Sequence record: AF039879.1 | DNA length: 744 nt | Reading direction: 5' to 3' (one strand) | Origin: a phage | Shown: positions 1 through 744 of the stretch, in pieces | How positions within the stretch are numbered: the stretch's first letter is position 1 | Layout: each line of letters begins with the position of its first letter | Notes under the pieces: model-generated | Told to the model about the DNA's origin: nothing | Databases searched by the model: none | The model's input: only the letters and a program-made list of their open reading frames with translations | Program-made: the position numbers and the translations under genes

Positions 1-31
1 CTTCATGCCTGCAGGTCGACTCTAGAGGATC
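1..31. other. Cloning-vector polylinker (pUC18/19 or M13mp18/19-type MCS) at the 5' end of the read; not native insert sequence. The insert joins at a BamHI-compatible GATC end.
   Basis: Seen directly: CTGCAG (PstI) 9-14, GTCGAC (SalI) 15-20, TCTAGA (XbaI) 21-26, GGATC 27-31, in the exact order and spacing of the pUC19 MCS (GCATGCCTGCAGGTCGACTCTAGAGGATCC). Bases 1-8 'cttcatgc' match the HindIII/SphI part 'cttgcatgc' with one dropped base, typical of the start of a read. The BamHI site is not regenerated (GGATCA), as expected for a Sau3AI/MboI/BclI/BglII-type insert end ligated into BamHI-cut vector. Confidence 0.9.
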
Positions 32-218
32 ACTGCACGNNAATTGCAGCATGGGNATCTCCGCAATGAGAGTAAAAGCCAGAACCGTGATCGTTAATAT
101 CAACGTTTGCACCTGATTCGCGAGCCGCTCGCCAGTATTGACCGCCATTAGCTTTAAGCTTGTTGATCAAGTCTNCGTTGGCTCTGCACGGAGCTATAGG
201 AAAGACCGTTACGGCCAA
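30..218 (-). CDS. Probable C-terminal continuation of the same hypothetical protein in a shifted frame. This frame is open from 248 to 33 and ends at TGA 32..30. The TTG at 218..216 reported as start is most likely just the first start-like codon chosen by the ORF finder, not a real initiation site.
   Basis: The frame is open for 72 codons (248..33) with no ATG anywhere in it and no ribosome-binding site before the TTG. It overlaps the 3' end of ORF 209..643 and begins immediately after a TGA at 251..249, which is the pattern expected for a single gene broken by an indel in 212-248. The TGA at 30..32 lies within insert-derived sequence (GATCA), so it is probably the native stop rather than a vector-created one. 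Confidence 0.4.
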   Translation of the reverse strand: MAVTVFPIAPCRANXDLINKLKANGGQYWRAARESGANVDINDHGSGFYSHCGDXHAAIXVQ

Positions 219-643
219 GGACCGAAAGCGCCTACAAGCATAGCATTTTCAAGGCCCAAGTCTGCCTTAGTAGGCTTATTTACNGGGTCGTAAATCCTTG
301 CGGCTAGGCTTTCAATAAATCCTGATGGTTGAGTATCTTGACTAACAAATCCTTCTGGAATGTATAATTCAGTCCTGCCAGTCTGTGCCAGTACTGCAAC
401 CCTTGTTTCTTTAATAAAGGCTCGCTGATAGCACCAGACTTCGAAATAGCCATCACCTTCTACAAGGCCGTAACGCAGTTGGTTATCCCAGGCAAGGTTT
501 GGTGAACCGAGTCGGCGAACACTTAAAAATTTAGTTATATTTTCACTGGTTACCCCTCTTGCATCGTTAAGACCGCGAGCAGATNTCTCTACAAAGTCAA
601 TATTACCGTAACTTGAACCGTAGTTACCGCCATTTGTAATCAT
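209..643 (-). CDS. Hypothetical protein of unknown function, upstream/central segment: 144 codons from ATG 643..641 to TAA 211..209. The true start is uncertain, and the reading frame probably continues into the downstream ORF after a frameshift.
   Basis: Uninterrupted 432-nt open frame on the minus strand, against a random expectation of roughly one stop per 20 codons at this base composition; no comparable ORF on the plus strand. I re-translated the frame by hand and it matches the track. The X at codon 283-285 (CCN) must be Pro whatever the N is. No Shine-Dalgarno-like purine run lies 5-12 nt upstream of ATG 643, so the start is not confirmed. I do not recognise the protein family. Confidence 0.6.
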   Translation of the reverse strand: MITNGGNYGSSYGNIDFVEXSARGLNDARGVTSENITKFLSVRRLGSPNLAWDNQLRYGLVEGDGYFEVWCYQRAFIKETRVAVLAQTGRTELYIPEGFVSQDTQPSGFIESLAARIYDXVNKPTKADLGLENAMLVGAFGPWP

Positions 644-744
644 TAGCGTTAGGTGACAGGCTACTGCACCTGGGATNGGGTANGTTTAGCCTATCTTGAC
701 GTAANACGCCTACTNGTTGTTTGTACCGAACGGGGCCAGTCGTA

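Follow-up and report, generated by a model that had tools for sequence, protein, structure and literature searches.

Genes for phage tail components are a classic setting of programmed ribosomal frameshifting, as exemplified by the G/GT genes of phage lambda, and this background counts in favour of such a mechanism when two overlapping frames are met in a tail-related gene. The tail fibre gene ltf of phage T5 encodes pb1, the L-shaped tail fibre protein of 1396 amino acids. In the domain map of pb1, residues 1-40 are the anchoring domain, residues 41-218 form a coiled coil and residues 219-1263 the rigid fibre domain, followed by a C-terminal chaperone that is auto-cleaved (PMC12750041); the chaperone is also described in PMC4690869, and the cryo-EM model of the fibre domain is listed as 'PDB: N/A' (PMC12750041). 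The ltf gene is dispensable in the laboratory. T5hd1 and the 'laboratory-adapted fiberless' T5 are viable, and only their adsorption rate is affected. The molecular lesion of T5hd1 was not found in the literature searched, which leaves nothing in that mutant to match against the DNA described below.

The window analysed here, that is, the whole stretch of 744 nucleotides in record AF039879.1, has been described preliminarily as carrying one apparent gene split into two overlapping open reading frames, with a base-calling error as the most parsimonious cause. The comparison with T5 supports the core of this description and changes several of its details. With a probability of about 0.93, the frame break arose at base calling, where falsely doubled bases came to interrupt one continuous ltf frame.

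Vector and insert in the window

The window is very probably a rough single-pass read of the Sanger type, made from a plasmid or M13 clone which carries an internal fragment of T5 ltf. Its main parts are as follows.

1..31, plus strand: polylinker of the pUC18/19 or M13mp18/19 type, with a HindIII remnant, SphI, PstI, SalI and XbaI sites and a BamHI half-site
32..744, minus strand: internal fragment of ltf (T5 pb1, L-shaped tail fibre protein, 1396 aa), corresponding to ltf nt 661-1363, codons 221-455
660..744, minus strand: degraded distal end of the read, with 8 insertions, 3 miscalls and 4 N in 85 bases

The assignment of the first part relies on positions 4-31, which are identical (28/28) in 34 plasmid records from unrelated taxa; the canonical AAGCTTGCATGCCTGCAGGTCGACTCTAGAGGATCCCCGGGTACC context is present in one of these 34 records. 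Compared with the canonical AAGCTTGCATGC, one G is absent near position 4 of the vector part, and this missing G of CTTGCATG is already one base-calling slip. The presence of the polylinker at the start of the read also means that the read was never vector-trimmed. Homology to T5 ends at position 32, where the junction (marked here by a slash) is GGATC/ACTGCACG in the read versus GT/ACTGCACG in T5, the GATC being absent from T5. This arrangement suggests blunt-end cloning, e.g., of an RsaI end (GT^AC) or a sheared end into a filled-in BamHI site.

The insert matches five T5 entries when compared by blastn with phage records (AM084272, AY692264, AY587007, AY543070 and NC_005859), with a coverage of 100% and an identity of 96.6%, in which Ns and errors are counted. 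Every one of these matches lies inside the coding sequence for pb1, of 4191 nt and 1396 aa, which is represented by the protein entries YP_006961.1, CAJ29339.1, AAU05270.1 and AAX12061.1 and belongs to the family phrog_24369. Since the insert spans codons 221-455, the domain map of pb1 (PMC12750041) places the read at the start of the fibre domain. For the 203-aa fragment obtained after correction of the frame, Pfam returned no family, and no solved relative of pb1 residues 252-454 came up in the sequence search of the PDB.

The chromosome of Escherichia coli was also considered as the source of the insert and is ruled out, since complete genomes never match the full insert. In the megablast search of E. 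coli complete genomes, the matches were limited to 11 prophage tail-fibre genes, with 77-86% identity over approximately window 204-704.

Two features are found antisense to ltf in this region. A 51-aa open reading frame with a TTG start (window 138-293, plus strand) spans the sites of both extra bases described below; it has no counterpart annotated in any T5 record and is taken as a chance frame. In NC_005859, a 2.5-kb 'rho-dependent transcription terminator' (T5.134; 84346-86822, minus strand) is annotated antisense to ltf and overlaps the whole insert, which is unusually long for a regulatory feature.

Reading frames and discrepant bases

In the read as given, two long frames are present on the minus strand, and the ORF listing and the translation agree with the coordinates first reported for them. 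The first, frame A, is the open reading frame 209..643, which starts with an ATG at 643, runs from 643 to 212 over 144 amino acids and ends with the TAA at 211..209. The second, frame B, has its codon starts at 2 mod 3 and extends without a stop from 248, directly after the TGA at 251..249, to 33, where the TGA at 32..30 closes it. The translation of frame B contains no Met codon, as had been stated, and the TTG at 218 is its sole possible start. From the base composition, a stop-free run of 72 codons is expected by chance with P ~0.02, and one of 144 codons with P ~0.0004. Both frames are thus longer than chance would allow, which is expected for pieces of one real gene.

The preliminary description recognized these two frames and missed a third one, frame C, which carries the 39 bases between the two extra bases. 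The complete arrangement, in the direction of the coding strand, is given below.

221..643, minus strand: frame A segment in the true ltf frame, residues 252-392, identical to T5 pb1 except for X271 (N at 585) and Q371P
219..220, minus strand: first extra base (overcall), GG on the plus strand (CC in the coding strand), CAAGGACC in the read versus CAAGACC in T5; the true frame passes from A to C
213, minus strand: miscall, G on the plus strand where T5 has C, changing Gly395 (GGT) to CGT (Arg)
209..211, minus strand: TAA ending frame A, an out-of-frame triplet across Gly395-Asn396 (GGT AAC), not a real stop
181..219, minus strand: frame C segment (codon starts at 0 mod 3), 13 true codons, residues 393-405 (LGGNGLSYSSVQS)
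180..181, minus strand: second extra base (overcall), GG on the plus strand, TTGGCTC in the read versus TTGCTC in T5; the true frame passes from C to B
33..179, minus strand: frame B segment in the true ltf frame, residues 406-454, identical to T5 pb1 except for three N-containing codons
30..32, minus strand: TGA closing frame B, formed where the insert (..CAGT) joins the vector (GATCC..) as GT/GATCC; a cloning artefact

The stops that bound frame C are at 234..232 and 156..154, and its translation shows ...GRNGLSYSSVQS...; after the correction, the segment matches T5 exactly. The ATG at 643..641 is the codon of the internal Met252 of a gene of 1396 codons and not a start codon. The ltf frame runs on upstream of this ATG (in T5, ...KLTDPGAVSCHLTLMITNGG), which is hidden in the read by the corruption at 660-744. 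Therefore, the expectation of a fused gene of about 200 or more codons does not hold, as the read represents an internal fragment (codons 221-455) of a far longer gene.

The discrepant bases were located by the column-by-column comparison of the read with T5 and then by a separate, independent global alignment for which the orientation of the read was kept. Within window 171-230, the only differences are two one-base insertions (180/181 and 219/220), the substitution at 213 and an N at 175. An indel of a single base between 212 and 248 had been proposed, with alignment to a finished genome as one way to find it. Such an alignment does reveal an extra base inside this interval, at 219/220, which is absent from the T5 records; the second extra base, at 180/181, lies outside the interval, and the miscall at 213 accompanies them. 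A further discrepancy is seen at window 284-285, where the plus strand has NG in the read (N at 284, miscall at 285; CN in the coding strand) and CT in T5, and this results in the false Q371P of the translation.

Deletion of both extra bases yields 203 residues equal to residues 252-454 of T5 pb1, save four N codons, Q371P and G395R. The corrected fragment aligns to profile positions 252-454 of the 1396 positions of phrog_24369 (tail fiber protein) with E=1e-126. Frames A, C and B encode pb1 residues 252-392, 393-405 and 406-454 in this order, so that a single protein is collinear across the frame changes, as predicted for fragments which belong together.

Origin of the frame break

The proposed course of events starts with the base caller, which would have doubled a single G at two places, 219/220 and 180/181, and mistaken the C at 213 for G. 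The two extra bases would shift the true coding-strand frame twice, from A to C and from C to B. Past the first of them, frame A would run into the out-of-frame TAA within GGT AAC, and frame B would seem to begin from nothing until the TGA of the insert/vector junction closes it. This explanation is favoured because a systematic error signature, the match to a known locus, the lack of the extra bases in relatives and the exact protein obtained upon repair all point to it, and we infer that base calling introduced the extra bases, which would then be absent from the DNA of both the clone and the phage stock. The suggestion that a base-calling error splits one gene agrees with the alignment, in which the read follows the continuous T5 ltf frame from end to end and the break is due to bases found in the read only.

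The error signature is visible in the whole read. Relative to T5, 10 bases are inserted, 5 are miscalled and 10 are N in the read, with a concentration of these faults at 171-230, 284-285 and 660-744; window 301-659 has no called-base error. All of the indels (10/10) are insertions, with 0 deletions. Where the inserted position was called as a base, it duplicates an adjacent identical base in seven of eight cases, and the called-base substitutions are changes to G in four of five. Such a pattern of discrepancies is that of a base caller splitting peaks, not of mutation.

The second line of evidence comes from 12 natural sequences: four T5 records, the Salmonella phages Tennessee and GEC_vB_N5, one E. 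coli prophage fibre gene and five metagenome contigs. Both extra bases are absent from these sequences and G (coding strand) occupies the substituted site, despite divergence elsewhere. The four T5 records, which derive from the st0 and ATCC 11303-B5 stocks, are mutually identical over the region of the frame break (window 140-300). GEC_vB_N5 and the E. coli prophage fibre gene diverge strongly just downstream and yet lack both extra bases. The metagenome contigs were found with a degenerate pattern permitting either form of the first site; all five matches are 27 bases long, the length of the site when the extra base is missing, and carry the G at the substituted site, and the second extra base is also absent wherever these contigs can be aligned. 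Exact scans of IMG/VR found neither site as it stands in the read (0 matches), while in the T5 form both sites matched T5 itself only. In the genome contig collection, a degenerate pattern covering the first site with and without the extra base had 0 matches.

The relatives also reveal a change in similarity within the gene. T5 ltf is homologous to GEC_vB_N5 and to E. coli prophage tail-fibre genes at 82-90% over window 204-704, and this homology falls off sharply just past a conserved motif, GLGG(N/S)G, within a few bases of the artefactual stop. The drop near window 204 looks like a mosaic junction, a site of module exchange between tail-fibre genes, and its closeness to the frame break is a coincidence.

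Some points speak against an artefact. Sanger reads are usually good approximately 180-220 bases in, which is where both extra bases sit, and window 101-170 is clean. Moreover, with ltf dispensable, a real truncating mutation at this place would be viable. The latter point leads to the strongest alternative, a genuine frameshift mutation, in which a +1 insertion after codon 392 was present in the T5 stock, e.g., in a fibreless hd-type laboratory mutant, or in the clone, truncating pb1 at 394 residues. The viability of fibreless T5 is compatible with such a lesion, and the first insertion alone would suffice for the truncation; the second insertion and the substitution would then represent further real changes or read errors. 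Taken as real, however, the three changes (+1, substitution, +1) have to occur independently within 40 bases, and yet window 301-659 has no called-base difference. The first +1 already creates the new stop, and no selective reason exists for the substitution and the second +1 downstream of it. All indels of the read are of the same overcall type, including those in the unreadable tail, and the variants of the read are absent from all public sequences searched. We therefore consider a real mutation improbable, with a chance of a few in a hundred.

Far less probable still is a programmed -1 ribosomal frameshift within 212-248 which would join frames A and B. The geometry permits it, since the two frames share 37 bases, over which a -1 shift would lead from A into B. 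However, the gene is one continuous frame here in T5 and in all 11 other relatives, so that the two-frame layout is not conserved. The scan of the whole of frame A found no X_XXY_YYZ slippery heptamer, which extends the preliminary observation that no canonical one exists in the overlap, and the search of the whole window against Rfam gave no match at a permissive E-value. Furthermore, with A joined directly to B, the conserved LGGNGLSYSSVQS of the third frame would be lost or misread. In line with the low likelihood assigned to it from the start, programmed frameshifting is thus excluded by the continuity of the reference genes, the lack of a slippery site and the conserved residues carried by frame C.

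Just as close to negligible is the reading of the window as two separate genes, in which the TAA at 209-211 would close a fibre gene and frame B would belong to a gene of its own downstream. In megablast, the similarity to prophage tail-fibre genes of E. coli does stop at about window 204, close to the TAA, but the matched region is well within a long fibre coding sequence (3411 nt in OZ501612, 4191 nt in T5) where nothing ends, and frame B has no ATG and owes its stop to the vector junction. No homologue ends at the position of this TAA, where the relatives carry the corresponding bases out of frame within GGT AAC or GGC AGC. A gene end at TAA 209-211 is rejected, as the prophage genes run on for kilobases and the end of the match is a boundary of mosaic homology.

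Use of the record and comparison with known systems

There is no real biological feature at the frame break and no new biology in the window, which contains a well-known gene in a low-quality, vector-contaminated single read. The consequences are a matter of data hygiene only: the vector at 1-31 should be trimmed and the rest annotated as an internal fragment of T5 ltf, and the window is unsuitable for calling open reading frames, pseudogenes or frameshift sites. In a wider sense, the locus indicates that the repair of two overlapping frames by a 'single indel' can mislead. Here the one-base repair is wrong because the frame is broken twice, and it provides an open frame with 13 wrong residues. 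Inference at the level of open reading frames from other reads of the same batch should expect +1 overcalls, especially a doubled G.

The frameshifting of lambda G/GT, of the -1 type, resembles this locus in the presence of two overlapping frames in a phage tail-related gene. It differs in that here the slippery heptamer is lacking, relatives do not share the layout and a single open reading frame makes up the reference gene.

The fibreless T5 mutants provide the second comparison. If a +1 insertion after codon 392 were real, it would be a lesion such as fibreless (hd-type) laboratory mutants of T5 are expected to carry, and it should give a fibreless but viable phenotype, as the C-terminal chaperone and the greater part of the fibre domain would be lost. 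Nothing ties the read to such a mutant, however, and the pattern of discrepancies fits read error.

The third comparison is with T5 ltf itself. The insert (32-744) is ltf nt 661-1363, all called bases are identical in window 301-659, and the only changes that separate the two are those expected of a poor read.
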